Positions 13,557 through 31,777 of a stretch of DNA of 64,000 bases are shown here, piece by piece (within the stretch, counting starts at the first letter, position 1; every line of letters begins with the position of its first letter). This DNA is from Acutalibacteraceae bacterium (GTDB lineage: Bacteria > Bacillota > Clostridia > Oscillospirales > Acutalibacteraceae), in assembly GCA_045578165.1 (NCBI GenBank), contig JAZNJR010000003.1, positions 1,402-65,401 of the forward strand. The letters run 5' to 3'. The position numbers and the translations under genes are program-made. The notes beneath the pieces are model-generated. The model had not been told where the DNA came from, made no database searches, and saw only the letters and a program-made list of their open reading frames with translations.

Positions 13557-13590
13557 GCACCGACTAATTAAGTCGGTGCTTTTTGTTTTT
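13557..13590. terminator. bidirectional terminator (after X-Ala on plus, after the CE4 gene on minus)
   Basis: GCACCGAC-TAATTAA-GTCGGTGC flanked by an A-run (13551-13556) and a T-run (13580-13590). The CE4 stop codon is at 13589-13591. Confidence 0.65.
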
Positions 13591-14446
13591 AAAAAGTAAG
13601 GGTTTCGCCGGGTTTAATTGTGTATAATTTACCGTCTATATCCATCCAAATTTGTTTAAGGGTGGGGTTGTAAATTTTGCTGCTGTCAGCACTGAAAACC
13701 AAAGAATTATATGCGTTTACATATTCGTAAATTTCAATATTTGTTGCATACCAGGTGTCTTCCTTGCCGCTTAATTTTTCACAAATTTCTTCAATGCGTT
13801 CCCAGTTGTTTTTTTCATGGAATTCAAATGAATGCCCCCATAAATAAAAGAGTTTGGGCTCACGGCGGGCGTGATAAGACTGTTCTTTTAAGTCGACAAA
13901 TTTTTCCACAAGCTCTATGGTTTCTTTATCGTCGTGGTGTGCTGTTGGCATCCATTGATACCAGTCTTGCGGTAAACTAAAGCTGTCGTTAATTTCGCCT
14001 AAAGTTCGAGCATAAACAATGTCAAGTTCTTTAAGATAATGTGAAATATTTTCAATATTTGCACCGTTTTGGAACTGACGAATACCTGTGTCGGGGTAGG
14101 CAAGACCGCGAACAATCATATTAAAGTCTTTTTCAAGACCAAGACGACATTTTAAAACGTCCTGAATACCGTCAATTGTCCTTAAATTACCGTTTGCACG
14201 GTGTTGTGCACCGTGTGTGGCAATTTCGTGACCTGCGTCAACAATATTTTTTTGAATTTCTTCTTTTGTTAAATGCCAGTCCTGTTCGTTTTTGCCAAAC
14301 CAATCACTATTAAGGTTAAATGTGCCTTTAAGCCCATATTTATTAAAAATTTCGGCAAGTCGAATGTCCCAGCGGCAACCGTCATCGTAGCTGAAGGTTA
14401 CTGCTTTAAATTTACCTTGCGGGAAACGTAAAAAACGATATCTCAT
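13589..14446 (-). CDS. polysaccharide deacetylase family protein (CE4 / NodB-like), no signal peptide
   Basis: 285 aa. FSYDDG (Asp-Asp motif) and ATHGAQH (His-His motif) of the NodB homology domain. Confidence 0.75.
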   Translation of the reverse strand: MRYRFLRFPQGKFKAVTFSYDDGCRWDIRLAEIFNKYGLKGTFNLNSDWFGKNEQDWHLTKEEIQKNIVDAGHEIATHGAQHRANGNLRTIDGIQDVLKCRLGLEKDFNMIVRGLAYPDTGIRQFQNGANIENISHYLKELDIVYARTLGEINDSFSLPQDWYQWMPTAHHDDKETIELVEKFVDLKEQSYHARREPKLFYLWGHSFEFHEKNNWERIEEICEKLSGKEDTWYATNIEIYEYVNAYNSLVFSADSSKIYNPTLKQIWMDIDGKLYTIKPGETLTF

Positions 14447-14457
14447 AATAACACCTA

Positions 14458-16632
14458 CTATTCTGCTTTCAATTCAAAGGTAAGGGTTTCAAAATCGTGT
14501 AAGGGTAAAATCGGTAAGCCGAAATTCATAAGAGTTCTACCGCTAAGTCGCATAGAAACGGGGCTTACTCTATAAATTTTGTCGGGCAAAAGACCTTGAA
14601 GTTTTACGTAATGACCGCGACTGTTGGCTGTGATTTTTTGCGAAGCAACCATAACAAATGCCGATTTTTTATTTGATGCTATAATTTGCCAACTGCAATA
14701 ATCACTTGTGAAGGGACTTTCAAGACGGAAAAACGTGCCGGAAGCAATCATATCTTCAAGGCGCTTGTGAAGAGCAATTTGTTCTTTAATTTGAATTTTC
14801 TCGCTTCTGCCAAGCTTTGCAATATCAAGCTCGTAACCAAAATTGCACATTTGTGCAACGTCCCCACGGGTTTTGAAATAGGTGGTACGTCCGGTTTGGT
14901 GGTTGGGACAAGCTGAAACGTGCGCCGACATTGCCGACGGGGGATAAACTAAGCTTGTACCGTACTGAATTTTAAGGCGTTCAATAGCATCTGTATCGTC
15001 ACTGGTCCAAATTTGTGGCATATAGTAAAGTACGCCAAAGTCAAATCTACCGCCACCGCCTGCGCAACCCTCAAACAATACCTTGGGGAAGTTATCGGTC
15101 AAGCGGCGCATTAGTTCATAAACGCCTAAAATGTAGCGGTGGAAAAACTCACCTTGTTGTTCGGGAGCAAGGCCTGCAGAACCTGCATCGGTTATGTTGC
15201 GGTTCATGTCCCACTTTACATAAGTAATTTCATATTTTTCAAGAATTGCGGCAATTTGGTTGTAAATGTAATCAACAATTTCGGGACGGGACATATCTAA
15301 TACTAATTGCTGACGACTTTCGGTCATTTCTTTGTTTTTAACGTGGACACACCAGTCGGGATGTGTTTCAAAAAGACGACTCTTGCGGGAAATCATTTCG
15401 GGTTCAATCCAAAGCCCAAACTTCATACCGTTTTCTTTGCAAACCTTGACGACGGGGTCAAATCCGTTGGGGAATTTGTTTTGGTCAATAAACCAGTCGC
15501 CTAATGAGGAATGGTCGTTATCGCGTTTGCCAAACCAACCGTCGTCAAGAACAAAGGTGTCAATACCAAGGTCTTTACAGTTGTTAACGAATTCGGCAAT
15601 AATTTCTTCCGACATATCAAAATACATTGCTTCCCAGCTGTTAATAACAATTGGACGTACCCTTTTGTTACTTGATTTGCCAAGATGATTGCGGCACATA
15701 CTGTGGAAGCTTTGCGACATACCGTTTAAACCGTTTTTACTGAATACGCAAACAGCTTCAGGGGTTGAAAAGCTTTCATTTGGTGCAAGATTATAGCAGA
15801 AATTGTAAGGATTAATACCTGCTTGTAAACGGGTCGAGCCAAATTGGTCGACCTCTGCACAAATTTTAAAGTTGCCGCTGTAAACGAGCGAAAAACCGTA
15901 TGCAATGCCATTGTCTTCGGTGGTGTCGGGAGAAACAAGCGCAGCAAAACAGTTGTGTTGATGTCCTGTTGCACCGCGGCGACTTTCAATTGAGGTTGTG
16001 CCGTTTGCTAAAGCGCGGCGGTTAATGTGTCTTTCACGTGCCCAAGCACCGTCAAGTGTAATAAAATCAAAATTTTGCGCCTGAAAATCTATGGAAAGAC
16101 TTTGTGCCGATAAAAGTTTAAGCGGCTCATTAGATGTGTTATGTATAACGGTGCGACGGGTAATTGCGTCTTCTTTTTCAAAAACCGAATAAATAAGGGT
16201 TACTTCATAATTTGAAACGGTGTCCTTAAGTACAATTTCCAAAGTGTCAACGTTTTCACAATGCTTATCGAAAGAGGGAAGACCCTTAACGGTTTCCTTT
16301 TCCTTGAAAATACGATAGTTTTTAAAAACAAGGTTTGAAGTACGTTGACCGTGTAGGTTTTCGGTTAAAACAGCGGGAATTCTAAAGTCGCCATTGCCGG
16401 AAATCGGACATTCAAAAGGGGCTACATCCTTAGAAACAATCCATTTATCAATAATTTCAGACTGCATATATTCATTTTTGGTGAAAAGGTTAAGCGAATC
16501 GAGGTTATCGTCGCCGATTAATGCCCCGTAATACCAGTGACAGAGCATATCGTCATTTAAAATTTTAATAACATAGCTGGAATTTGCAGTGTTAAGAAAA
16601 AAAGTTTTTGTTTCTTCACGGAAAAAAATCAT
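14458..16632 (-). CDS. alpha-galactosidase, GH36
   Basis: 724 aa. FVLDDGWFGKRDNDHSSLGDW, KWDMNR and CAGGGGRFD are hallmark GH36 (AgaA/RafA-type) segments. Confidence 0.9.
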   Translation of the reverse strand: MIFFREETKTFFLNTANSSYVIKILNDDMLCHWYYGALIGDDNLDSLNLFTKNEYMQSEIIDKWIVSKDVAPFECPISGNGDFRIPAVLTENLHGQRTSNLVFKNYRIFKEKETVKGLPSFDKHCENVDTLEIVLKDTVSNYEVTLIYSVFEKEDAITRRTVIHNTSNEPLKLLSAQSLSIDFQAQNFDFITLDGAWARERHINRRALANGTTSIESRRGATGHQHNCFAALVSPDTTEDNGIAYGFSLVYSGNFKICAEVDQFGSTRLQAGINPYNFCYNLAPNESFSTPEAVCVFSKNGLNGMSQSFHSMCRNHLGKSSNKRVRPIVINSWEAMYFDMSEEIIAEFVNNCKDLGIDTFVLDDGWFGKRDNDHSSLGDWFIDQNKFPNGFDPVVKVCKENGMKFGLWIEPEMISRKSRLFETHPDWCVHVKNKEMTESRQQLVLDMSRPEIVDYIYNQIAAILEKYEITYVKWDMNRNITDAGSAGLAPEQQGEFFHRYILGVYELMRRLTDNFPKVLFEGCAGGGGRFDFGVLYYMPQIWTSDDTDAIERLKIQYGTSLVYPPSAMSAHVSACPNHQTGRTTYFKTRGDVAQMCNFGYELDIAKLGRSEKIQIKEQIALHKRLEDMIASGTFFRLESPFTSDYCSWQIIASNKKSAFVMVASQKITANSRGHYVKLQGLLPDKIYRVSPVSMRLSGRTLMNFGLPILPLHDFETLTFELKAE

Positions 16633-16650: not shown

Positions 16651-17544
16651 TCAATGTCTTTCAACCGTAAGGTCAAAGGGTAGGTTTTCGGTAGCTTCAA
16701 CTGTAAATTTGTTGTGAATGTTTGCCTGTCGCTGAATGATATTAACATTCATTTTGCGGTATTTTTCAGGAGAAACACCCATAATTTTTTTAAAAGCGTT
16801 CGAAAAATAGGGCTGGTCTGCATAGTTAAGCATATCTGCAATTTCTTTAACCTGCATATTTGAATTTAAAAGCAAATCAGACGCAATTTCAATGCGTTTT
16901 TTCGCAAAATATTGGTAAGGCGTCATATTAAACGTCTTTTTAAAAATACTTATAACCTGTGCTTGTGACATGCAAAGTTCGTTTGCAATGTGTTTAAGTG
17001 AAATGTCCTTTTCATAAAGGTGGCTGTCAAGCATCTTTTTAACAGTGTTTACCTTAATATCAACCAAATCTTTTTGGCGAAAATCATAAAGCTTTTGCAT
17101 TATTGAATGAAATTTTATTGCGCCCATCATCATAATGTCTTTTACCGGCAAAGAACTGTTTGTAAGCTCGTAAAGGTCGTCAAACACCGCTTTATTATTA
17201 AAATGTTTAAAAACAACGGTGTTTTGTAAATCGTAAGAATATAAAAGATTTGAAACCAAGGTGCCGTCTACGTTAAACCAAATTTTGTCCCAAGTATCTG
17301 TGGCGTAATAGCGGTGACAGCTGCCTTTTGGCAGAATATAAGCATCGCCTTTTTCGACTTTGTATTCACGTCCGTCGCAAAAAATGGTGCCTGAACCACC
17401 GTAAATGTACTCTAAAATGTAGCAATAACTCTTTTCGCGATATACTTCGTAACGGTCGTCGCAATTTGTTATGCCGGACATTTCAATATTAAATGGAAAC
17501 TCGGTAGGGTCAAACGGGAAAGTCGTTACGCGTTCATTATTCAC
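16651..17544 (-). CDS. AraC family transcriptional regulator
   Basis: 297 aa. Cupin-like N-terminal domain and a C-terminal double HTH (IANELCMSQAQVISIFKKTFNMTPYQYF ... IADMLNYADQPYFSNAFKKIMGVSPEKYR). Confidence 0.85.
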   Translation of the reverse strand: MNNERVTTFPFDPTEFPFNIEMSGITNCDDRYEVYREKSYCYILEYIYGGSGTIFCDGREYKVEKGDAYILPKGSCHRYYATDTWDKIWFNVDGTLVSNLLYSYDLQNTVVFKHFNNKAVFDDLYELTNSSLPVKDIMMMGAIKFHSIMQKLYDFRQKDLVDIKVNTVKKMLDSHLYEKDISLKHIANELCMSQAQVISIFKKTFNMTPYQYFAKKRIEIASDLLLNSNMQVKEIADMLNYADQPYFSNAFKKIMGVSPEKYRKMNVNIIQRQANIHNKFTVEATENLPFDLTVERH

Positions 17545-17823: not shown

Positions 17824-17852
17824 TTGTCTGATATGGCGGTGTGTGATATAAT
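17824..17852 (+). promoter_or_regulatory. candidate sigma-A promoter of the 28-kb glycan locus
   Basis: TTGTCT (17824-17829), 17-nt spacer, TATAAT (17847-17852), 78 nt upstream of the ATG at 17930. ATGGCGGT occurs at 17833-17840 and 17865-17872. Confidence 0.35.
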
Positions 17853-17929
17853 TATGGTGTATAAATGGCGGTAGTTTTTTCAAAAAACAAGAACGCCCCG
17901 AAAATGTAGTGTTTCTAAGGAGGAATACG

Positions 17930-19267
17930 ATGTATCTTAAAAGAAAAATTTCGGCTTTGCTTTTGATTGTGGTTATGCTTTGCTGCGCGGTGGGTTGTGC
18001 AGGCGGCACACGCAACGAATATGAAACCGACCGCGAAATACCCGACGTTGATAAAGCAACTGCAAATCTTAATGAAGATGATAAGCCACCCGTAACCGAA
18101 AAGGTTAAGTGGGACGGTCCTGCAGGTTATACAATTGTTGTGCCTAAGGGTAATGCACAGCTTTTAGAAGTTGCCAACAAATTTAACGACTGGATTAAGA
18201 AACAAACCGGTAAAGGTCTTAAAGTTGTAACCGACGATACTGCCGCAACCGATAAGGAAATTATAATCGGTAAAACCAAACGTTATGATTATTCTGCCAA
18301 AGAGGGCGAATATTTCGCAAAGGTAGACGGTAAGAAGCTTATTTTTGGCGGCGGTCACAACGTTACCATAAAGAAAGCTGTTGAAATCTATACCCGTTTG
18401 AAATATACAAAGGGTAAGGCATATACATATAGCGGTAATTCTGACTTTGTTGCGGAAAAATTCGGCTATACATACGTATGGGGCGATGAATTTGAAGGTA
18501 ACGAGCTTAACGACAAGCTTTGGGACCGCGTTACAAAAATGGCTGCCACCGCTGAAATGAGTTTGGACAACACCGAACTTACAACCAAAACCGAAAACGG
18601 TTATCTTAAAATGCTTGCAATGAGATATTGGGACCCCAAAAAAGGCGGCGTTGAATTTGTTGCTCCTTGGTCTGTTACAACCAGCAGCACCATGAACTAT
18701 AAATACGGTTACGTTGAAATTCGTGCAAAGGTTCCCTTTATTCGTGGCGTATGGCCTTCTTTCTGGACTTCAAGCCCAGGCGAGCTTGCGCCCCCGCGTA
18801 CTGCCAACTACTCTATTGAAGTTGACGTATTTGAGGTTTTCTCAAGTCTTGATACATTGTCGCCTAATATTCACAAATGGTATACCGACGGTCGTCACAC
18901 AATGTGGGCGGTTGATGAAGGCAACAGTAACGAATGGTATAAGTTTGAATCTGACAACCTTATTGAAGAATATCATCTTTACGGCTTTGAATGGACACCT
19001 ACCAAAATGACCATGTATATCGACAATAAGGCATATTACACCTATGACATTACCAAAAACTTTGATAATGGCGAAACAGGTATGGGTGGTTACAATACAA
19101 CCTTGTATCTTATTTTCAACAACCACTTGTTTACACAGTCAAGCAGTTATAAACCTTATGAGGGTTGCGAAGTTCGTGCAACCGACCTTCCCGCAGAATA
19201 TGCAATTGACTGGGTACGTCTTTATCAGAAAAACGATGGCAAGAGCCAACTTTATCTTAAAAAATAA
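17930..19267 (+). CDS. lipoprotein with a C-terminal GH16 beta-glycanase domain
   Basis: The start is moved to the ATG at 17930, after TAAGGAGG. Lipobox LCCAVGC. GH16 catalytic motif SIEVDVFE (ExDxxE). The ~150-aa N-terminal domain is of unknown role. Confidence 0.8.
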   Translation: MYLKRKISALLLIVVMLCCAVGCAGGTRNEYETDREIPDVDKATANLNEDDKPPVTEKVKWDGPAGYTIVVPKGNAQLLEVANKFNDWIKKQTGKGLKVVTDDTAATDKEIIIGKTKRYDYSAKEGEYFAKVDGKKLIFGGGHNVTIKKAVEIYTRLKYTKGKAYTYSGNSDFVAEKFGYTYVWGDEFEGNELNDKLWDRVTKMAATAEMSLDNTELTTKTENGYLKMLAMRYWDPKKGGVEFVAPWSVTTSSTMNYKYGYVEIRAKVPFIRGVWPSFWTSSPGELAPPRTANYSIEVDVFEVFSSLDTLSPNIHKWYTDGRHTMWAVDEGNSNEWYKFESDNLIEEYHLYGFEWTPTKMTMYIDNKAYYTYDITKNFDNGETGMGGYNTTLYLIFNNHLFTQSSSYKPYEGCEVRATDLPAEYAIDWVRLYQKNDGKSQLYLKK

Positions 19268-22240: not shown

Positions 22241-23155
22241 ATGAATGGTGTTAAAGCACGTAAAATTAAAAAAGACCATGGCTTTAAAGAACAATTTCCA
22301 ATGATGCTTTTGGCAGTACCGTTTTTTGCTTTCTTCTTTATGTTTACGGTAATACCGATACTGTCCTCGATTGTATTTAGTTTTACTTCATTCGATATGA
22401 TTTCTTCGCCGAAATTTATCGGTATCGATAACTATATGCGAATGTTTATTCAAGATGAAGTTTTCGTTATTGTACTTAAAAATACCATTGCATTGGCTGT
22501 TGTTGTTGGTCCTGCGGGATTCTTACTTGCCTTCCTTTTAGCTTGGCTGGTTAACGAATTTTCAACAGGTGTTCGTACAATACTTTCCTTTATGTTCTAC
22601 GCACCTACTCTTGTGGGTAACGCATATTTCATTTGGAAAATTGCTTTCAGCGGCGACAGTTATGGTTATATTAACAGTTTGCTTTTGTCAATTGGTATTA
22701 CGACCGAACCTATTGTATGGCTTAAAAGTCCCGAATACCTTTTCCCAATTGTAATTCTTGTACAGCTTTGGCAAAGTATGGGTGTTTCCTTCCTTTCAAA
22801 TATTTCGGGTTTGCAAAACGTTAACCGCGATTTATATGAAGCAGGTGCAATTGACGGTATTAAAAATCGTTGGCAGGAATTGCGCTATATTACTTTGCCC
22901 TCGATGTCACACATGCTTTTATTTAGTGCGGTAATGCAAATTCAAAGCAGCTTTTCTATCAGTGCGGTTGCGGTTGAGCTTGCGGGCTACCCCAGTGTTC
23001 AGCACACGGTAGATACTATTGTTACTCACATGTCCGATATGGCAACTGTTAGATACGAGCTTGGTTATGCATCGTCAATAGCTGTTGTGCTGTTTTTGAT
23101 GATGGCAACTACCCGTTTCGCTATCGGCAAATTGCTAAGTATCGTTAGTAAATAA
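22241..23155 (+). CDS. carbohydrate ABC transporter permease (set 1, MalF/UgpA-like)
   Basis: 304 aa, 6 predicted TM segments, EAA-type loop YEAGAIDGIKNRWQELRYITLP. Confidence 0.85.
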   Translation: MNGVKARKIKKDHGFKEQFPMMLLAVPFFAFFFMFTVIPILSSIVFSFTSFDMISSPKFIGIDNYMRMFIQDEVFVIVLKNTIALAVVVGPAGFLLAFLLAWLVNEFSTGVRTILSFMFYAPTLVGNAYFIWKIAFSGDSYGYINSLLLSIGITTEPIVWLKSPEYLFPIVILVQLWQSMGVSFLSNISGLQNVNRDLYEAGAIDGIKNRWQELRYITLPSMSHMLLFSAVMQIQSSFSISAVAVELAGYPSVQHTVDTIVTHMSDMATVRYELGYASSIAVVLFLMMATTRFAIGKLLSIVSK

Positions 23156-23168
23156 GGGGGAGGGCAAT

Positions 23169-24071
23169 ATGTTAAAGAAATTATATTACAAATACAGATT
23201 GGCTAACCCCAAAAAAGCCAGCGTTAATAGGTTTACACGTTCAAAGTTTGGTAACTTTGCAATTATGGTTTTAATTGTTGCGGCAGGTCTTTTCAGTATG
23301 TTGCCACTTATTTATGCGGTGGTAACCTCCTTTAAGCCGATAGATGAATTGTTAATCTTCCCGCCAACATTCTTTGTAAGAAGACCCACAACCGTTAACT
23401 ATGTGGCACTTCCTACCTTGCTTTCCAGCTTGTCGGTGCCCCTTTCAAGATATATTTTTAACAGTGGTTTTATAACAATTGTTACCTCTGTTTTTAATAT
23501 TCTTTTCTCGGCAATGGCAGCGTTCTCGCTTTCAAAGGGTAAATATAAGGGCCGCGCAGTGTTTTTTATGCTTGTTCAGTTTGCGCTTATGTTTAACTCA
23601 TACACCTTGGCTGTTCCGCAATATTTCATTTTCTCAAAATTGGGAATGGTTGATACGTATTGGGTATACATTTTACCTCAATTAGCCGGTACATTGGGTG
23701 TATTCCTTATTAAACAGTATATTGAAGGTTACGTGCCAGACGCACTTATGGAAGCCGCTAAAATTGACGGTGCAGGTTATTGGAGAATTTTCTGGACAAT
23801 AATAATTCCCATAATTAAACCGGCTTGGCTTACGGTTGTGTTGTTTGCCTTCCCGACAATTTGGGGTGCAATTCCAAACGGTACAATTTTTAATGAAGAA
23901 CTTAAAACTCTTCCGCAAATTGTTACCCAAATTACCGCAGGCGGTACAGCTCGTGCAGGTAGCGCAATGGCGGTAACCACCATTATGATGATACCCCCTG
24001 TAATCGTTTATTTAATCTCGCAAAGCAACGTTGTTGAAGCAATGAGCAGCGCGGGTATTAAAGATATGTAA
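23169..24071 (+). CDS. carbohydrate ABC transporter permease (set 1, MalG/UgpE-like)
   Basis: 300 aa, EAA loop MEAAKIDGAGYWRIFWTIIIP. Confidence 0.85.
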   Translation: MLKKLYYKYRLANPKKASVNRFTRSKFGNFAIMVLIVAAGLFSMLPLIYAVVTSFKPIDELLIFPPTFFVRRPTTVNYVALPTLLSSLSVPLSRYIFNSGFITIVTSVFNILFSAMAAFSLSKGKYKGRAVFFMLVQFALMFNSYTLAVPQYFIFSKLGMVDTYWVYILPQLAGTLGVFLIKQYIEGYVPDALMEAAKIDGAGYWRIFWTIIIPIIKPAWLTVVLFAFPTIWGAIPNGTIFNEELKTLPQIVTQITAGGTARAGSAMAVTTIMMIPPVIVYLISQSNVVEAMSSAGIKDM

Positions 24072-24084
24072 AGGAGTGAGCACA

Positions 24085-26193
24085 GTGTTAAAGAAAACAG
24101 TTCGTTTTATTGCAGTGTTTTTGATAATCGCTTGTCTTGCTTCGGTTACATTCAGCGCTTCGGCTGCTACACAGGTTCCTTTTGAAAGCTATACTTATTG
24201 GGAAGATATAACCGACAGTCGTAAATCGGTTTACAGTCGTCCAATGTATCAAACCGAAAAGGTTATAGACGCACTTTCTTTGGGAATCGAACCCTTTACC
24301 ACTATTAATGATGTTTATTCAGATGATAAAAACGTTTTCATTCTTGATAATACATCTCGAATTGTGGTGCTTGACGGTGATTATAACTTAATTAAAGAAA
24401 TTGGCGAAGTTGTGGACAAGGATGGTAAAACCTATAACTATTCGGGCGCTATGAGTCTTTACGTTCACACCGACGGTACAATATTTATTTCCGATACCGA
24501 TAATCAACGCGTACTTCGTGTTGATATTGACGGTAACTTGGTTGATTTATATTCCGTTCCAAAATCTTCGCTTATACCGAAAGATTTCGTATATAAGCCC
24601 TTAAAAGCGGTTATGGATTCTCACGGTTATTTATATGTATTAAGCGACGGTTCATATTATGGTGCGCTTTTATACGCCCCCGATAAAAGCTTTACCGGCT
24701 TTTACGGTGCTAACAACGTAACAACGGGTATTGCCTCGGCGCTTCAAGGCATTTTGGAACGTGTTTTCCCAAACAATGCCAAGAAAAGCGCAAGTGCAAG
24801 AAAGCTTCCGTTCTCGTTTGTTGATATTGTAATTGACGGCAGCGACTTTATTTACACCGCAACCGGTAAAACAAGCACATTTGACCGCAAGGGTCAAGTT
24901 AAAAAGCTTAACCCCGGTACAGGTAATAACATTTTCAATTCTGAAGACATAAATTTCGTTGACGATGAATTTAATACAACCTTTAACAACGGTACCCAAA
25001 TTGAACAAGATATCGTTGGTATTGAAGTAACCGATAACGGATTTGTTTTTTGTATTGAATCTCAATTTGGTAGGGTGTTCCTTTACGACCGTTCTTCAAG
25101 AATGCTTACCGCATTTGGTGGCGGTTTGGGTCAAGGCACACAGGACGGTACATTTGTTGCCGCTACCGCAATTGCTTTAAACGGTGAAGACGTAATCGTA
25201 AGCGATAAGCTTAAAAACACCGTTACAATATTTACTCCTACCGATTTTGGTAAAAAGGTAATGGGTCTTATTGATATTACTTTAGAGGGTAAATATCTTG
25301 AAGCACAAGCCGGTTGGAAAGAAGTTATTGCGCTTGACCGCAATTTCCAACCCGCATACAGCGCACTTGCCCGTGCCGAGCTTACAAACGGTAATTACGA
25401 AGCCGCAATGGAGCTTGCAAAAGAGGGTTACGATCGCGAAACCTATGCTTTGGCTTTTGAATTTTATCGCAAAGGTCTTTTGGAAGAATATTTCTGGGTA
25501 ATTTTCTTAACCGTTGTGCTTTTAGCGGCAGCGCTTATTGTGTTCTATTTAACCGTGGTTAAAAAGAACAAACAGGTCATTAAAAACAAGCAAGTAAGGT
25601 TAATGTTTAAAACGCTTGTTCATCCGTTTCTTACTTTTGAAGAAATTAAAGAGAAAAAACAAGGTTCCCTTATAATTTCTGCAGTGCTTATCGGTCTTTT
25701 CTATATAACCGCAGTAATGCAGGTGTTGTGCGGCGGATTTATGTTTACTCAGTACGACCCTGCAAGTTTTAACTCGCTTTGGGTACTTCTCAGAAGCGCA
25801 GGTTTGGTTATTTTGTTCGTAATTAGTAACTGGATGATTTGTACTCTTATGCAGGGTAAAGGTACAATGCGTGAAATTTGCATTGTTACAAGCTACAGCC
25901 TTTTACCAATAATTATTGAACGCTTTATTCGTATTTTACTTACAAACGTTTTGCTTCCAAATGAAGCAATGTTCTTAACCGGTTTTGACGCGGTTGCAAT
26001 TGGTTTTGCTGCATTGTTAATTATAATCGGTCTTTTGAAAATTCACGACTTTGAAATGCCGCGTCTTATCTGGACCAGTATTTTAAGCGTTGCGTGGATG
26101 GCTGTGTTAGTATTCCTTATAATTCTTGTGGGAATGTTAGTTCAGCAGTTAGGCGGTTTCGTTGTAACCGTATTCTTGGAACTTATATCATAG
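24085..26193 (+). CDS. signal peptide + NHL-type beta-propeller + TPR-like segment + C-terminal Yip1-like multi-pass membrane domain
   Basis: The probable start is the GTG at 24085, 8 nt after AAGGAG (the track gives 24076). Repeated blade-like segments (IFISDTDNQRVLRVDIDGNLV, VIVSDKLKNTVTIFTP). About 6 hydrophobic helices lie in the last ~230 aa. Confidence 0.55.
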   Translation: MLKKTVRFIAVFLIIACLASVTFSASAATQVPFESYTYWEDITDSRKSVYSRPMYQTEKVIDALSLGIEPFTTINDVYSDDKNVFILDNTSRIVVLDGDYNLIKEIGEVVDKDGKTYNYSGAMSLYVHTDGTIFISDTDNQRVLRVDIDGNLVDLYSVPKSSLIPKDFVYKPLKAVMDSHGYLYVLSDGSYYGALLYAPDKSFTGFYGANNVTTGIASALQGILERVFPNNAKKSASARKLPFSFVDIVIDGSDFIYTATGKTSTFDRKGQVKKLNPGTGNNIFNSEDINFVDDEFNTTFNNGTQIEQDIVGIEVTDNGFVFCIESQFGRVFLYDRSSRMLTAFGGGLGQGTQDGTFVAATAIALNGEDVIVSDKLKNTVTIFTPTDFGKKVMGLIDITLEGKYLEAQAGWKEVIALDRNFQPAYSALARAELTNGNYEAAMELAKEGYDRETYALAFEFYRKGLLEEYFWVIFLTVVLLAAALIVFYLTVVKKNKQVIKNKQVRLMFKTLVHPFLTFEEIKEKKQGSLIISAVLIGLFYITAVMQVLCGGFMFTQYDPASFNSLWVLLRSAGLVILFVISNWMICTLMQGKGTMREICIVTSYSLLPIIIERFIRILLTNVLLPNEAMFLTGFDAVAIGFAALLIIIGLLKIHDFEMPRLIWTSILSVAWMAVLVFLIILVGMLVQQLGGFVVTVFLELIS

Positions 26194-26209
26194 TAAAGGA
26201 GGAATTGTT

Positions 26210-28462
26210 TTGAAATTGCAAAAAAGCTTGTCCCTCATATGTGCTTTAGCAATAACAGTTGTGTTATTTGCCGGCTGTTCATCAAATAAAAATGAAATTA
26301 AAAAGAATTCCTTCGATAAAGATGCGGTTTCATCAGTTATAGATGATAAATTTATCGCCGAAAACGATAATTTTAAGCTTGAACTTAATGAAGTTACAAT
26401 GGGTGTTGTTCTTACCGACAAGAAAACCGGTAAAACCTATGGCACTAACCCGCTTGAAGAGGGCGGCATTAAGTATGACGAATTAGGTATGCCGATAAAA
26501 CGTCACCCACAGCTTGAATCGGTGCTTTTTATTAAGTATCTTGACGTTAAAACAAACACCACCGCCGATATGATTTCATATACGGGTGCGGTTTCAAACG
26601 GTAGAACCGTTTATGAAAAAATCGAAAATGGAATAAAAATAAAATATTATTTTGACGATGCCGAAATTATGGTGCCGGTTACCTACACCTTAAGAGATAA
26701 GGGTATAGCATTAACCATTAATGCTGATGAAATTCAGGAAAATGAAAATATGCTTCTTACCGCATCCTTGGCACCGATGTTCTGTTCGACAAAAAACACC
26801 GATGACGGTTATTTGCTTTACCCATCGGGTTCGGGTGCACTTGTGTACGCTAAAGAAATTTCCGGTCCTGGTGAAAACTATTCTGCTGAAGTTTACGGTT
26901 TTGACGCTTCTAAAGAAAAGTGGGACCAAACCTCTACCGAAAAAGCTATAAGACTTCCCGTCTTGGGCGCAAAATTTGGCGAACAGGCAGTTTTGGGCAT
27001 TATCGAACAGGGCGCTGAATCTTCACTTATAGATATGAAGGTTGGCGCAACCTCTATTGGTTATTCTTCTGTTTACGTTACATATCAGCTTCGCGGCTAT
27101 ACCGCAAATATTAAGGAGCTTTATAACAACCGTTATTATAAGGGCGACGTTTATGCCGATAACCTTATAAGCGCCCCCCTTACCGTTTGTTATTACCCCT
27201 TGGCACAGGAAGACGCAAATTACAGTGCAATGGCTGAAGTTTACCGCAACTATCTTAACGAAACTGAAGGTAAGTCCGAAAACAGCACAGTATCAACCCT
27301 TGATATCACAATGGTTGGTGGTGCTATGATTCAAAAATCGTTCTTGGGTATACCTTATAAAACGTTATATAAAACCACAACCCTTACCGACGTTGAAAAA
27401 ATTGTTAATAAGCTTGAAAAAGACGGTGTAAAGGTTTCAAACCTTAACCTTACCGGCTTTACACAAAACGGTATTGACAGCAACAAGCTGGGCGGTGGGT
27501 TTAAGTTAGATTCAAAGCTTGGCAAGGCAGAACAGTTGACAAACCTTAATAAAAACTGTACCGACCTTGGCACAAACTTGTATTTTGATTTCAATATTGT
27601 AAGCTTTAACAAAGGCGGTAACGGTTTTAACACTTATTTTGATGCCGCTACCCGTGCCAACAAAAAGATTTCAAAGCTTTACAGTTTTGACATTGCGGTT
27701 TTGGGTCGTAATTCTAACGATGCATATTCAGTTTTGGCGCGTGACCGTTTAGAAGACGCTGCAAACAATGCGTTTGGCGCGGCTTCAAACTGGAAGTTAT
27801 CAGGCGTTGGCCTTTCATCCCTTTCAAACACCGCTTATTCGGACTATACAAATGAAAACAGCACCGAATTTTATGCAAAATCGGGAATGGCAAAGCAGGT
27901 TTCAAAAATTTATGCCACTTCAAAGAAAAATAAGCTTAACGTCCTTTCGAGTGACGCAAATGCTTATGCGGCTGCTGCTTCAAACCTTGTTTTAAACGTT
28001 CCAACCGCTTCAACCGGCGCATATCTTTTTGATGAAGACATTCCTTTCTATGCAATGGTTTTTCGTGGTCGTACTGCTATTTCGGGTGACAGCTTAAACC
28101 TTGCAATTGATAGTAATGAACAGCTTTTACAGTGTGTAGAAAGCGGCGCAGGCATTGCCTACACGCTTACAAATCGTTACGCAACAAAGCTTCTTGACAG
28201 CACCTCGGGCGTTTTTTATAACAGTCTTTACAGTGACTTAAAGAAAGAAATTAAAACAAATTACCAAAAGGTTGCCGCTTTTTATGAAAAAATCGGCAAC
28301 AGCGAAATCGTATCACATACCATTTGTGAAAACGGTCTTCGCGAAACGGTATTTGCAAATGGTGTTAAGGTTTACGTCAATTATCTTAACAGCGATTTAG
28401 AAACTGAAACCGGTATTGTTAAAGCGAAAAGCTTCTTGATAGAGGAGGCGAAGGCACAATGA
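26210..28462 (+). CDS. 750-aa lipoprotein of unknown function (I recall similar proteins annotated DUF5696; unverified)
   Basis: TTG start 7 nt after AAAGGAGG. Lipobox LFAGCSS. No catalytic motif I can name. Its stop overlaps the next start (ATGA). Confidence 0.45.
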   Translation: MKLQKSLSLICALAITVVLFAGCSSNKNEIKKNSFDKDAVSSVIDDKFIAENDNFKLELNEVTMGVVLTDKKTGKTYGTNPLEEGGIKYDELGMPIKRHPQLESVLFIKYLDVKTNTTADMISYTGAVSNGRTVYEKIENGIKIKYYFDDAEIMVPVTYTLRDKGIALTINADEIQENENMLLTASLAPMFCSTKNTDDGYLLYPSGSGALVYAKEISGPGENYSAEVYGFDASKEKWDQTSTEKAIRLPVLGAKFGEQAVLGIIEQGAESSLIDMKVGATSIGYSSVYVTYQLRGYTANIKELYNNRYYKGDVYADNLISAPLTVCYYPLAQEDANYSAMAEVYRNYLNETEGKSENSTVSTLDITMVGGAMIQKSFLGIPYKTLYKTTTLTDVEKIVNKLEKDGVKVSNLNLTGFTQNGIDSNKLGGGFKLDSKLGKAEQLTNLNKNCTDLGTNLYFDFNIVSFNKGGNGFNTYFDAATRANKKISKLYSFDIAVLGRNSNDAYSVLARDRLEDAANNAFGAASNWKLSGVGLSSLSNTAYSDYTNENSTEFYAKSGMAKQVSKIYATSKKNKLNVLSSDANAYAAAASNLVLNVPTASTGAYLFDEDIPFYAMVFRGRTAISGDSLNLAIDSNEQLLQCVESGAGIAYTLTNRYATKLLDSTSGVFYNSLYSDLKKEIKTNYQKVAAFYEKIGNSEIVSHTICENGLRETVFANGVKVYVNYLNSDLETETGIVKAKSFLIEEAKAQ

Positions 28463-29358
28463 AATTAAAAAGAAAAACAGGCGGTATTGAACAAATTAAA
28501 AGTCGTTACGGCTGGTTGTTTATTTCCACATGGCTTATTGGCGTTGTGCTTTTCTTCGCAATTCCGGTAATACAGTCAATAATTTATTCATTCTCGCAAA
28601 TGACTCTTACCGCCGACGGTGTAAAAACCGTATGGGTGGGACTTAAAAATTACAAATACATTATTGGCGAACACACAAGTTATTTAAACTGGCTTGGTAA
28701 ATCGGTTACAAATTTTGTTTATTCGCTTCCTATAATTGTAATTTTAAGCTTAATTTTGGCGATTTTACTTAACCAAAAATTCCGTGGTAGACTCTTCTTC
28801 CGTGCCCTTTACTTTATGCCCGTTATCATTGCAACCGGTGTTGTAATTGACTTGATTTCGGGTATGTCGGGCAGTGATATGACATCTTCTTCGGTTAATG
28901 AATCGGTGTCGGGCGGAATGTTCAGCGTACAAGATATTATCGCAATACTTGATTTGCCCGCCGAAGTCGCCACATTCGTACAAAAAATCATCAGTAACAT
29001 ATTCGACCTTATTTGGAACAGCGGTGTTCAAACCATTTTATTCCTTGCAGGGTTACAGTCAATACCCGCTACACTTTACGAAGCAAGTAAGGTTGAGGGC
29101 GCTACAAAGTGGGAAGAATTTTGGTTTATTACCTTCCCAATGCTTTCAAACGTTACCCTTTTGGTTGTAGTTTACACAATGGTTGAGCTTTTCGTTAGTA
29201 AAAGCAACGCGGTTGTTTCACAGGTTTACAGCTTAATGCGTGCCGCTGTTTACGACGAAACTTCAGCAATGATGTGGTTCTACTTCTTGTGTGTTGGTGC
29301 TGTTATGGGCGTTATTGTATTGCTTTATAAAAAGCTTTTACAAGACAGATGGTCTTAA
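28459..29358 (+). CDS. carbohydrate ABC transporter permease (set 2)
   Basis: 299 aa, EAA loop YEASKVEGATKWEEFWFITFP. Confidence 0.85.
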   Translation: MKLKRKTGGIEQIKSRYGWLFISTWLIGVVLFFAIPVIQSIIYSFSQMTLTADGVKTVWVGLKNYKYIIGEHTSYLNWLGKSVTNFVYSLPIIVILSLILAILLNQKFRGRLFFRALYFMPVIIATGVVIDLISGMSGSDMTSSSVNESVSGGMFSVQDIIAILDLPAEVATFVQKIISNIFDLIWNSGVQTILFLAGLQSIPATLYEASKVEGATKWEEFWFITFPMLSNVTLLVVVYTMVELFVSKSNAVVSQVYSLMRAAVYDETSAMMWFYFLCVGAVMGVIVLLYKKLLQDRWS

Positions 29359-29372
29359 AGGAGGAACTGAAA

Positions 29373-30365
29373 ATGAAAAACACTGAATCAATTTCAAGTT
29401 CTTTCCTTAATAAGAACACTATAAATTCCGCTAAAAAAGCGGCACCCGGCGCAATGATGTTTATTTTTCGTATGGTTTTGCTTGTATCTATCGGCTTTGT
29501 TATTATCTACCCGCTTATTTATATGATAGTAACCTCGCTCGTTAGCAGAAACGGTTTCTTTAACTCTACAAGAGTTTGGATTCCAGAAGCTATAAGCCCG
29601 TTGTTTAACTATAAAACAACCGCCACCCTTATGGATTATTTCAAATCGTTGTGGTCAACCGTAAGGTTCGAAATGGTCAGCGCTTTAATTGAGGTTTGTG
29701 CTTGTTGTGTAACCGCATATGGTTTTGCGCGTTTTAAGTTCAAATTTAAAGGCGTACTTATCGGTGTATTGTTCCTTACAATTTTGGTACCCGATATGAT
29801 GGTGCTTATTCCCCGAATGGCAAACTATTCAAAAATGGATATTTTGGGGATTTTGGGCTTGCTTGACAAATTTACAGGCATTGATTTAAGACCCAACATT
29901 TTAGGCACTGAAGCGGCATTCTATTTACCGTCGCTTTTCTCAATGGGTCTTCGTTCGGGTATTATGATATTCATTTATATGCAGTTCTTTGCAAGCTTCC
30001 CAAAAGAACTTGAAGAAGCTGCTTGGATAGACGGCGCAGGTCCTATTAAAACCTTCCTTAAAATAGCAGTTCCGTCTTCGGGCGTTGCTATTACAACCGT
30101 TTTGGTTTTCTCACTTATTTGGCACTGGAACGATTATTTGCTTTGTTCAATGTATTTGAATAACGAATACCCCTTGGCAATGCAGCTTAATTTATTACCA
30201 ACTAATTTAACAACAATGGGTTATTACCTTAACCCTGAAACCCCTGAAACCTTGGCATTCCAAATGGCAGGTTGTGTACTTTTCGTAACACCAATGCTTA
30301 TTATTTATATGATATTGCAACGTAAATTTATTGAAAGTATCGACCGTGTAGGTATTACGGGTTAA
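29373..30365 (+). CDS. carbohydrate ABC transporter permease (set 2)
   Basis: The start is moved to the ATG at 29373, after AAGGAGG. EAA loop EEAAWIDGAGPIKTFLKIAVP. Confidence 0.85.
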   Translation: MKNTESISSSFLNKNTINSAKKAAPGAMMFIFRMVLLVSIGFVIIYPLIYMIVTSLVSRNGFFNSTRVWIPEAISPLFNYKTTATLMDYFKSLWSTVRFEMVSALIEVCACCVTAYGFARFKFKFKGVLIGVLFLTILVPDMMVLIPRMANYSKMDILGILGLLDKFTGIDLRPNILGTEAAFYLPSLFSMGLRSGIMIFIYMQFFASFPKELEEAAWIDGAGPIKTFLKIAVPSSGVAITTVLVFSLIWHWNDYLLCSMYLNNEYPLAMQLNLLPTNLTTMGYYLNPETPETLAFQMAGCVLFVTPMLIIYMILQRKFIESIDRVGITG

Positions 30366-31730: not shown

Positions 31731-31755
31731 TTTGATTTTTAAATTTAATCCGAAC

Positions 31756-31777
31756 GCCTTCTCCTTCGGGAGAAGGC
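31756..31777 (+). promoter_or_regulatory. GC-rich stem-loop without a T-tract (possible mRNA processing/stability element or weak attenuator)
   Basis: GCCTTCTCC-TTCG-GGAGAAGGC, 26 nt after the binding-protein stop. It is followed by AAGCGG rather than a T-run. Confidence 0.35.

Follow-up and report, generated by a model that had tools for sequence, protein, structure and literature searches.

Two adjacent genes in a 64-kb stretch of an Acutalibacteraceae genome (contig JAZNJR010000003.1; hereafter the window, meaning all 64,000 nucleotides (nt) analyzed) encode an NHL/TPR/Yip1 membrane protein and a DUF5696 lipoprotein, and both belong to a conserved seven-gene cassette, SBPbig-permA1-permA2-NHL/Yip1-DUF5696-permB1-permB2. 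Here SBPbig is a giant solute-binding protein (SBP), and permA1 to permB2 are the four permeases of two ATP-binding cassette (ABC) transporter pairs, A and B. The cassette is one invariant unit, to which a second SBP gene, SBPsmall, is a dispensable addition, and its synteny spans two classes of Bacillota, in Firmicutes of gut, rumen and soil. We find it plausible, with belief and doubt about evenly balanced, that the Yip1 and DUF5696 genes are the fixed center of an ancient cassette that captures a complex glycan, processes it at the cell surface and imports it.

Conservation and evolution of the cassette

A scan of one genome per species gave 252 relatives, and in the best 80 Oscillospirales loci we called open reading frames (ORFs) and looked among them for counterparts of the window proteins, counting a component only where the contig permits the check. 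The NHL/Yip1 gene lies directly upstream of the DUF5696 gene in 75/75 loci; permease pair A is present in 71/71, SBPbig in 64/64 and permease pair B in 72/74. Order and strand are constant in every checkable locus, down to 32% identity. The arrangement of the two central genes is far beyond chance, and the initial annotation was right to regard the pair as a conserved accessory module among CUT1-type ABC genes. It had also described the pair as wedged between two importers, a picture that gives way to one of seven genes forming a single co-diverging unit: SBPsmall directly follows permB2 in just 38 of 59 loci. Where it is absent, the next gene encodes a glycoside hydrolase (GH) of family GH36, GH2 or GH89, a beta-helix protein, a GFO/IDH oxidoreductase, a xylose-isomerase-like protein or a CE2/GDSL esterase; in other cases it is unrelated, for example gyrB. 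Catabolic glycosidases and esterases flank the cassettes (GH16, GH36, GH2, GH89, GH43, beta-helix, CE2). The GH16-like gene that precedes the cassette in the window is a variable accessory, found in 21/48 loci, and a giant surface protein is likewise encoded in 21/48.

Cultured carriers were found by tblastn against plasmids; the gene names given are those of PGAP. In Butyrivibrio fibrisolvens D1, plasmid pNP243 encodes a GH43 protein, a 977-amino-acid (aa) SBP, two permeases, an 'NHL repeat-containing protein' with a separate 'YIP1 family protein', DUF5696, two further permeases and two SBPs, with a histidine kinase and a response regulator upstream. On a plasmid of Paenibacillus cellulosilyticus KACC 14175, ugpC precedes genes for a 986-aa SBP and a first permease pair, which are followed by those for a 719-aa YIP1 protein, DUF5696 and a second permease pair. 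Orthology to the window cassette is one-to-one, in that the A permeases of both cultured cassettes match A, the B permeases match B and SBPbig matches over its full length; the proteins of the Bacilli cassette are 25-35% identical to those of the window. The initial annotation had allowed that the pair might prove not to be conserved with ABC transporters in other genomes, and the linkage held across the loci and the cultured carriers alike. Downstream of the Paenibacillus cassette, several LLM-class flavin oxidoreductase genes are interleaved with further SBP genes, which is unusual at a sugar locus.

The seven proteins have diverged together. Their pairwise distances correlate across 65 complete loci (Spearman 0.74-0.90), and up to three diverged cassettes occur in one genome (loci L014, L015 and L020 of the metagenome-assembled genome (MAG) JAZNJD), six other MAGs having two. 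Within a genome, each of the seven proteins has diverged between paralogous cassettes (DUF5696, for instance, to 32-39% identity), and every such cassette has closer orthologs in other genomes (43-87%). This parallel divergence means that the cassettes were duplicated and have evolved as whole units, and such paralogous expansion, resembling that of polysaccharide utilization loci (PULs), implies differing specificities. It is therefore very improbable that the locus consists of two independent, ordinary sugar importers flanking two unrelated genes with no functional coupling. Although each permease pair has normal CUT1 features and the window has an SBP gene at either end, the order is invariant in all checkable loci and recurs in Bacilli, the seven proteins co-diverge, whole cassettes have been duplicated and the second SBP is frequently absent. 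A mobile insertion or a chance neighborhood was also considered for the Yip1/DUF5696 pair and rejected, as there is no change in composition and synteny is invariant.

The DUF5696 protein is a distant relative of DagB

The lipoprotein matches PF18952 (DUF5696) at aa 135-742 with E 6.5e-134 and 448 bits against a gathering threshold of 25.6, covering model positions 4-612 of 612, so the DUF5696 label, which the initial annotation had offered as unverified, is correct. NCBIfam has no model matching the protein. The lipobox cysteine, Cys23, is retained by 96% of a diverse set of 151 relatives (28-57% identity), on which all residue conservation figures given here are based. In Butyrivibrio and Paenibacillus the protein instead has a transmembrane or signal anchor and no lipobox; tethering is thus conserved, and its chemistry is not. 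By a profile search of 1.84 billion representatives, the family comprises 5,119 clusters (50% identity) with a threshold of E<=1e-3, or 3,199 with one of E<=1e-30. None of these clusters carries a name, and our literature search found no mention of DUF5696 or PF18952.

The AlphaFold model (pLDDT 82, pTM 0.86) comprises a beta-sandwich (aa 48-332), a (beta/alpha)8-like barrel (aa 338-695) and a small C-terminal beta domain; the glycosidase-like barrel that the initial annotation had proposed to look for is present between the two beta domains. In Foldseek searches against the PDB, the best matches were DagB/ZgGH129 structures (5opq, 8rzk; E 5e-32 to 2e-30, TM-score 0.60/0.67), followed by the GH129 enzyme NagBb (E 1e-26, TMt 0.72), GH101 endo-alpha-N-acetylgalactosaminidases (GalNAc-ases; E 1e-19) and, more weakly, the F. 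plautii galactosaminidase, GH36 and GH31, with 8-13% identity across these matches. As modeled, the protein has the three-domain fold of the GH129/GH101 type.

DagB (ZGAL_3152) is a proven exo-alpha-1,3-(3,6-anhydro)-D-galactosidase of Zobellia galactanivorans, and its authors argue for a family of DagB homologs apart from GH129 proper (PMC5698469). A narrow profile of 21 DUF5696 sequences gave sub-threshold matches only against the PDB, and a profile of 138 representatives (28-45% identity) retrieved DagB at E 2.2e-7 through its N- and C-terminal domains. For profile comparison, the DagB sequence was rebuilt from HMMER alignments and its few relatives were added, several of which already bear a precomputed PF18952 match. 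The alignment of the DUF5696 profile to this clade by hhalign had a Prob of 98.1% and E 1e-13 in local mode, and a Prob of 99.4% and E 3e-20 in global mode, spanning 572-590 columns at about 14% identity. DagB itself passes the PF18952 cut-off of 25.6 with 41.3 bits and fails that of Glyco_hydro_129, also 25.6, with 19.9 bits. Because DagB lies above the PF18952 threshold, a Pfam family of 'unknown function' formally contains a characterized enzyme. Judged by these profile comparisons, the DUF5696 family is homologous to DagB over its full length, and its label hides a known enzyme family, which is an annotation gap; the lipoprotein, at first described as having no relative that could be named, has one.

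The barrel half gave no match to PF11308 (Glyco_hydro_129) even at E<=10, and a barrel-only profile searched against the PDB returned sub-threshold matches resembling GH13 'region I' (E 0.14-2.6) and no GH129 alignment from which catalytic residues might be placed. The initial annotation had held that a clean mapping to a characterized CAZy family would make the module ordinary. Homology to a characterized enzyme was indeed found, but identity is only near 14% and the catalytic residues cannot be traced, so the assignment is not a clean one.

The NHL/TPR/Yip1 membrane protein

The other central protein has all the parts first ascribed to it, namely a signal sequence, an NHL propeller, TPR-like helices and a Yip1 domain with about six transmembrane helices in the protein as a whole, each part found by Pfam, profile searches, the structural model or hydropathy. 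Yip1 (PF04893) matches at aa 512-681 of the 705-aa ORF that begins at 24076 (subtract 3 to count from 24085), with E 1.2e-10 and 42 bits against a cut-off of 28.6, over model positions 2-172 of 173; homologs are annotated with PF04893 as well, and orthologs bear the PGAP name 'YIP1 family protein'. For the ectodomain, the sequence by itself gave a weak TPR_19 match and an NHL match of only E 0.01 in Pfam, and no more than a weak ScyF-NHL match in NCBIfam. Homologs carry precomputed NHL matches (PF01436), some also SGL, and a profile of 24 sequences matched the NHL propellers of Thin, TRIM71 and TRIM2 in the PDB with E down to 2.5e-15, as well as consensus TPR proteins at aa 404-452. In the AlphaFold model (pLDDT 74), an N-terminal hydrophobic helix is followed by 24 strands at aa 36-385, four short helices at 387-447, a very long helix at 451-492 and five long helices at 529-701, and Foldseek matches the model to NHL propellers, with six blades (TMt 0.68-0.73). 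The predicted transmembrane helices total six, one at aa 464-495 and five at 526-702.

The homolog in Butyrivibrio (locus L081, 9183-11278) is encoded by overlapping ORFs for a 498-aa protein with NHL, TPR and transmembrane segments and a 206-aa Yip1 protein with five transmembrane helices. The split falls in the cytoplasmic loop right before the conserved HPF motif, so that the two halves can function as separate polypeptides, unless the strain carries a frameshift.

The initial annotation took Yip1 to be a family with no established bacterial function, but there is a precedent in YknW, which belongs to the Yip1 family and modulates how the ABC transporter YknXYZ is assembled (PMC4887032). 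Like the protein studied here, YknW of Bacillus subtilis / B. amyloliquefaciens is a membrane protein of the Yip1 family whose gene accompanies those of an ABC transporter (PMC4887032), and we found no other functional precedent for Yip1 domains in the neighborhood of ABC genes. The systems differ in that YknWXYZ is an exporter of the MacB type and includes a membrane-fusion protein, whereas the cassette is SBP-dependent and of importer type. No NHL/TPR ectodomain appears in the cited description of YknW, the comparison being one of family and description alone. By analogy with YknW, the Yip1 protein of the cassette would organize a complex.

Solute-binding proteins, permeases and ATPase

SBPbig consists of two modules resembling carbohydrate-binding modules (CBMs) of families CBM35/CBM6 (about aa 70-150 and 268-385), a helical region and a CUT1 SBP domain at aa 555-952, with SBP_bac_8/SBP_bac_1 matches in Pfam at aa 570-880. 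The C-terminal part of about 400 aa is a family-1 sugar SBP whose best solved relative is Lin1841 (PDB 5ysb, E 1.6e-17), which binds sophoro-oligosaccharides. When the N-terminal 530 aa were searched as a profile, they matched residues 407-517 of the cycloisomaltooligosaccharide glucanotransferase 5x7g (E 9e-6), a CBM35 module, and matched other CBM35/CBM6 modules weakly, which fits an N-terminal part made of two internally repeated beta-sandwich modules. With these CBM35/6-like modules, SBPbig has the makings of a polymer-capturing SBP. Both SBPs match the SBP_bac_8/SBP_bac_1 families and have sugar SBPs as their closest solved structures; SBPsmall is the least conserved component, with 21-87% identity among loci.

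All four permeases match PF00528 (BPD_transp_1). A scan located EAA motifs in A2 (aa 195), B1 (aa 208) and B2 (aa 222), and an EAA-type loop, LYEAGAIDG, is seen in the translation of A1. SBP-dependent BPD_transp_1 permeases with EAA loops are importers, and CUT1-type importers commonly share a distantly encoded ATPase. The sole locus seen with an ATPase attached is that of Paenibacillus, where a gene of the ugpC/msmK type lies directly upstream of the cassette (L082, 3783-4892).

A model for glycan capture, processing and import

If the cassette works as we propose, SBPbig would hold a polymer or large oligosaccharide with its CBM35/6-like modules and pass fragments to permease pair A. The DUF5696 protein, a putative DagB/GH129-like enzyme tethered at the outer face (by a lipid here, by a transmembrane segment in Paenibacillus and Butyrivibrio), would trim or cleave the bound glycan beside the transporters, and we infer that it is catalytically active at the cell surface. 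The two permease pairs would form two full heterodimers of transmembrane domains and import the products, presumably those of one substrate, with pair B working with SBPsmall where that protein is present. The NHL/TPR/Yip1 protein would act as organizer: its Yip1 helices may contact the permeases, as YknW does in the YknWXYZ system, and its propeller and TPR ectodomain may bind the enzyme, the glycan or both, thereby keeping hydrolysis and uptake together. Energy would be supplied by a shared MsmK/UgpC-type ATPase encoded elsewhere in the genome, and expression would start from a promoter upstream of the GH16-like gene under the control of a divergent AraC regulator. Capture, import and energy supply are drawn from domain content and knowledge of the families, and regulation from these together with gene spacing; the surface enzyme and the organizer are more conjectural, the latter by analogy.

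Several observations weigh against this model. Mutagenesis has identified D486, E517 and E531, together with D202 from the N-domain of the partner monomer, as the essential acids of DagB (PMC5698469), and these could not be matched to conserved acids of DUF5696. In the hhalign alignment, D486 is set against G532 and E517 against the variable S581, at a confidence of only 1-3 of 9, and the per-residue confidence in strands 4-5 is too low for an assignment; D232 may lie opposite D202 (WDDAT versus YGxDAS), but HMMER aligns that stretch otherwise. Catalysis by DUF5696 is therefore unproven. The window protein, moreover, has an asparagine at position 462 (codon 27593-27595), turning F-D-F-D into F-D-F-N, where 95% of the 151 relatives have an acid (D 87%, E 8%, N 5%); asparagine is also found there in 15 of 118 close relatives. 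Asn462 could mark a metal or ligand site, or lowered activity. A scan of the window ORFs, three at 61-63 kb excepted, turned up no ABC_tran domain. As to conservation, the 80 loci are the closest of the 252 relatives and nearly all are MAGs from one order, and a Bacteroidota DagB-like gene that we examined has no linkage to Yip1 or ABC genes, so the Yip1/ABC linkage belongs to the Firmicute branch only.

Other conserved positions of the DUF5696 family, which count in favor of the model, are E177 (94% E), Y201 (93%), the loop P205-x-G-x-G209 (P205 and G209 100%, G207 99%), D232 (98%), R295 (98%), D545 in Y543-S544-D545 (99%), N584 (99%), Y614 (99%), N630 (97%) and N724 (100%). These near-invariant polar residues are consistent with a conserved functional site of active-site-like pattern. 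D545 and D582 were also considered as nucleophile and acid/base, respectively, a pairing that we rejected since the wider family does not conserve D582.

The main rival to our model is that DUF5696 is a non-catalytic, glycan-binding pseudo-enzyme that serves pair B as a receptor in the position of an SBP, with Yip1 docking it on the transporter; we regard this as unlikely. The gene order speaks for it, since DUF5696 stands directly before permB1, with an ATGA overlap, in a mirror of SBPbig-permA1-permA2, and a small SBP follows pair B in only part of the loci. A receptor would also suit a protein that is always membrane-tethered, in which the catalytic acids of DagB cannot be traced and Asn462 occupies a mostly acidic position. 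On the other hand, the near-invariant D545, D232, E177, R295 and N584 are typical of active sites, the confidence of the barrel alignment is too low to call the catalytic acids absent, and pair B may have an SBP whose gene lies elsewhere. We know of no GH-fold protein that stimulates a type I importer in the place of a class-I SBP.

A different reading is that the cassette acts on the cell's own envelope or exopolysaccharide, in remodeling, recycling or export, with DUF5696 as a transglycosidase and Yip1 taking part in translocation. Retaining enzymes of the GH129/GH101 fold superfamily can transglycosylate, large repeat-rich surface proteins are frequent neighbors, and the function of bacterial Yip1 proteins is poorly known, its single precedent sitting in an exporter; still, we judge this reading improbable. 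The permeases are of the importer type by family knowledge, SBPbig bears CBM35/6-like modules, and the number of diverged copies per genome is as in PULs. The neighbors, too, are catabolic GHs, sugar-isomerase-like proteins, oxidoreductases and AraC or two-component sugar regulators, and in this catabolic context a role in own-surface glycans is unlikely.

Returning to glycan import, we also considered a stronger form of the model, in which the seven proteins make up a single undescribed membrane supercomplex. Yip1 would bridge both permease dimers, and the ectodomain would hold the DagB-like protein over pair B, where it would replace or feed a binding protein, so that cleavage of the CBM-captured polymer is mechanically coupled to the simultaneous import of two different products. 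This is speculative and, in our estimation, distinctly unlikely; if true, Gram-positives would have in it their functional equivalent of the SusCD 'utilisome', with ABC transporters as its basis. For the hand-over device between the importers that the initial annotation suggested, the data speak neither for nor against.

Comparison with known systems

[quoted passage not shown] They differ in that the essential acids and ligand-contacting residues of DagB are not recognizably conserved in DUF5696, and in that DagB belongs to a Bacteroidota carrageenan PUL whereas the window protein is a lipoprotein fixed in an ABC cassette; being locked into that cassette, it certainly has a substrate other than that of DagB. 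The same fold class includes NagBb, an alpha-N-acetylgalactosaminidase of Bifidobacterium bifidum (5wzn), and the GH101 enzymes EngBF and SpGH101, all of them alpha-glycosidases of the retaining type that work at the cell surface or on glycans of the host. DUF5696 shares just 12-13% identity with these and has no PF11308 match. The catalytic residues of NagBb are Asp435 and Glu478, and DagB has only the nucleophile in common with NagBb.

Gram-positive CUT1 loci (MalEFG/MsmEFGK) resemble the cassette in having an SBP and two BPD_transp_1 permeases with EAA loops, an ATPase encoded elsewhere, a surface-anchored GH, an AraC or two-component regulator, nearby cytoplasmic GHs and several diverged copies. 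The cassette is unlike the usual CUT1 loci in its two permease pairs, its CBM-fused SBP of about 950 aa and its obligatory NHL/TPR/Yip1 and DUF5696 proteins. SBP-dependent glycan loci of Gram-positives and enzymes of the GH129/GH101 fold are already known; the obligatory combination of components appears to be undescribed, as our literature search found no description of two permease pairs, a CBM-fused SBP, an NHL/TPR/Yip1 protein and a tethered DagB-like protein together.

The carriers of the cassette, Acutalibacteraceae and Oscillospiraceae, are Clostridia that abound in gut and rumen and are for the most part uncultured. With the cassette understood, thousands of genes now labeled 'hypothetical' would gain a function, a new subfamily or specificity of glycosidases akin to DagB/GH129 would probably be delimited, and a Yip1 domain would for the first time have a role in nutrient import. 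Such understanding could also reveal how Gram-positives, having neither an outer membrane nor SusCD, couple depolymerization at the surface physically to uptake. The two cultured carriers, B. fibrisolvens D1 and P. cellulosilyticus KACC 14175, make the cassette experimentally tractable.

Layout of the locus and its neighborhood

Nine closely packed genes lie on the + strand between 17.9 and 31.7 kb of the window, according to the ORF list (Table 1). From SBPbig onward the junctions measure 14, 13, 13 and 16 nt, followed by the overlaps (a 4-nt ATGA overlap of DUF5696 and permB1, and 10 nt between permB1 and permB2) and by 51 nt before SBPsmall; ORFs and gene order are as the initial annotation gave them. 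An AGGAG-type site precedes every start from SBPbig onward. The NHL/TPR/Yip1 gene most likely starts at the GTG at 24085, with AGGAG 10 nt upstream, because the longer alternative ORF from 24076 begins within that ribosome-binding site. Upstream of the GH16-like gene, 17824-17852 forms a good promoter-like site, and a GC-rich hairpin lies 3' of SBPsmall at about 31755-31776; the whole cassette is probably transcribed from that promoter. Judging from its position alone, the AraC-family protein is the likely local regulator, and the 1792-aa surface protein is probably on a separate transcript.

Table 1. Genes of the cassette and its flanks in the window, with predicted domains of the two central proteins
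Feature	Position	Strand	Basis and remarks
AraC-family regulator, divergent	16651-17544	-	HTH_18/AraC_binding
GH16-like lipoprotein	17909-19267	+	Pfam Glyco_hydro_16, E 3.2e-13; first gene of probable operon
SBPbig, giant solute-binding protein, 952 aa	19368-22226	+	SBP_bac_8/SBP_bac_1; core component 1
Permease A1, MalF-like transmembrane domain	22241-23155	+	BPD_transp_1; core component 2
Permease A2, MalG-like transmembrane domain	23169-24071	+	BPD_transp_1; core component 3
NHL/TPR/Yip1 membrane protein, 702 aa	24085-26193	+	Yip1 PF04893, NHL propeller; core component 4
NHL/TPR/Yip1, signal peptide	24085-24165	+	aa 1-27, ASA/AT cleavage site, predicted from hydropathy
NHL/TPR/Yip1, six-blade NHL propeller	24181-25239	+	Profile search; AlphaFold model and Foldseek
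NHL/TPR/Yip1, TPR-like helices	25243-25425	+	Model; TPR profile matches
NHL/TPR/Yip1, single transmembrane helix	~25471-25551	+	Hydropathy, aa 464-495; cytoplasmic HPF loop follows (predicted topology)
NHL/TPR/Yip1, Yip1 domain with five transmembrane helices	25609-26190	+	Pfam PF04893; hydropathy, helices at aa 526-702
DUF5696 lipoprotein, 750 aa	26210-28462	+	PF18952; core component 5
DUF5696, lipoprotein signal	26210-26278	+	Lipobox LFAG/C23
DUF5696, N-terminal beta-sandwich	26342-27214	+	AlphaFold model
DUF5696, (beta/alpha)8-like barrel	27215-28300	+	AlphaFold model
DUF5696, C-terminal beta domain	28301-28459	+	AlphaFold model
Permease B1	28459-29358	+	BPD_transp_1; core component 6
Permease B2	29349-30365	+	BPD_transp_1; core component 7
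SBPsmall lipoprotein, 437 aa	30417-31730	+	SBP_bac_8; optional eighth gene
Five-repeat membrane-anchored surface protein, 1792 aa	31974-37352	+	Frequent neighbor, outside core

The GH16-like protein has an intact ExDxxE motif (EVDVFE at aa 304) and a lipobox-like N-terminus; an N-terminal region of about 200 aa matches no assigned domain. The rest of the window encodes GH36, polysaccharide deacetylase, heparinase II/III-like, GH37-like, GDSL, MFS, GH89, GH30 and GerA proteins, and the window is a glycan-catabolic neighborhood in a spore-forming, Clostridium-class organism; the closest relatives of the locus are Acutalibacteraceae MAGs. The polysaccharide deacetylase gene adjoins the GH36 gene (13589-16632, - strand), both divergent from the cassette and sharing the AraC region with it. 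GH36 also lies directly 3' of the cassette in at least one related locus (L015), and ORFs of similar size are found there in L012, L019, L022 and L025. These GH36 neighbors hint at substrates of the alpha-galactoside or alpha-GalNAc type. Mucin O-glycan, arabinogalactan and alpha-galactosides were each considered as the substrate from the GH16, GH36, GH89, GH2 and GH43 neighbors, and none is supported, because those genes vary from locus to locus.

The 1792-aa protein downstream of SBPsmall contains five repeats of about 290 aa, starting at aa 45, 346, 642, 923 and 1213, each of which opens W-S-G-x-I-A-x-x-Y-A-G-G-x-G-T-x-x-D-P-Y-L-I. A single Listeria-Bacteroides repeat and, at the C-terminus, a transmembrane anchor with a KKKKNK tail are further features of this protein, for which a PDB search gave no sequence match. 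The surface proteins counted above behind the cassette in other loci are its relatives, at 27-44% identity, and it may be a substrate-facing adhesin of the cassette system.

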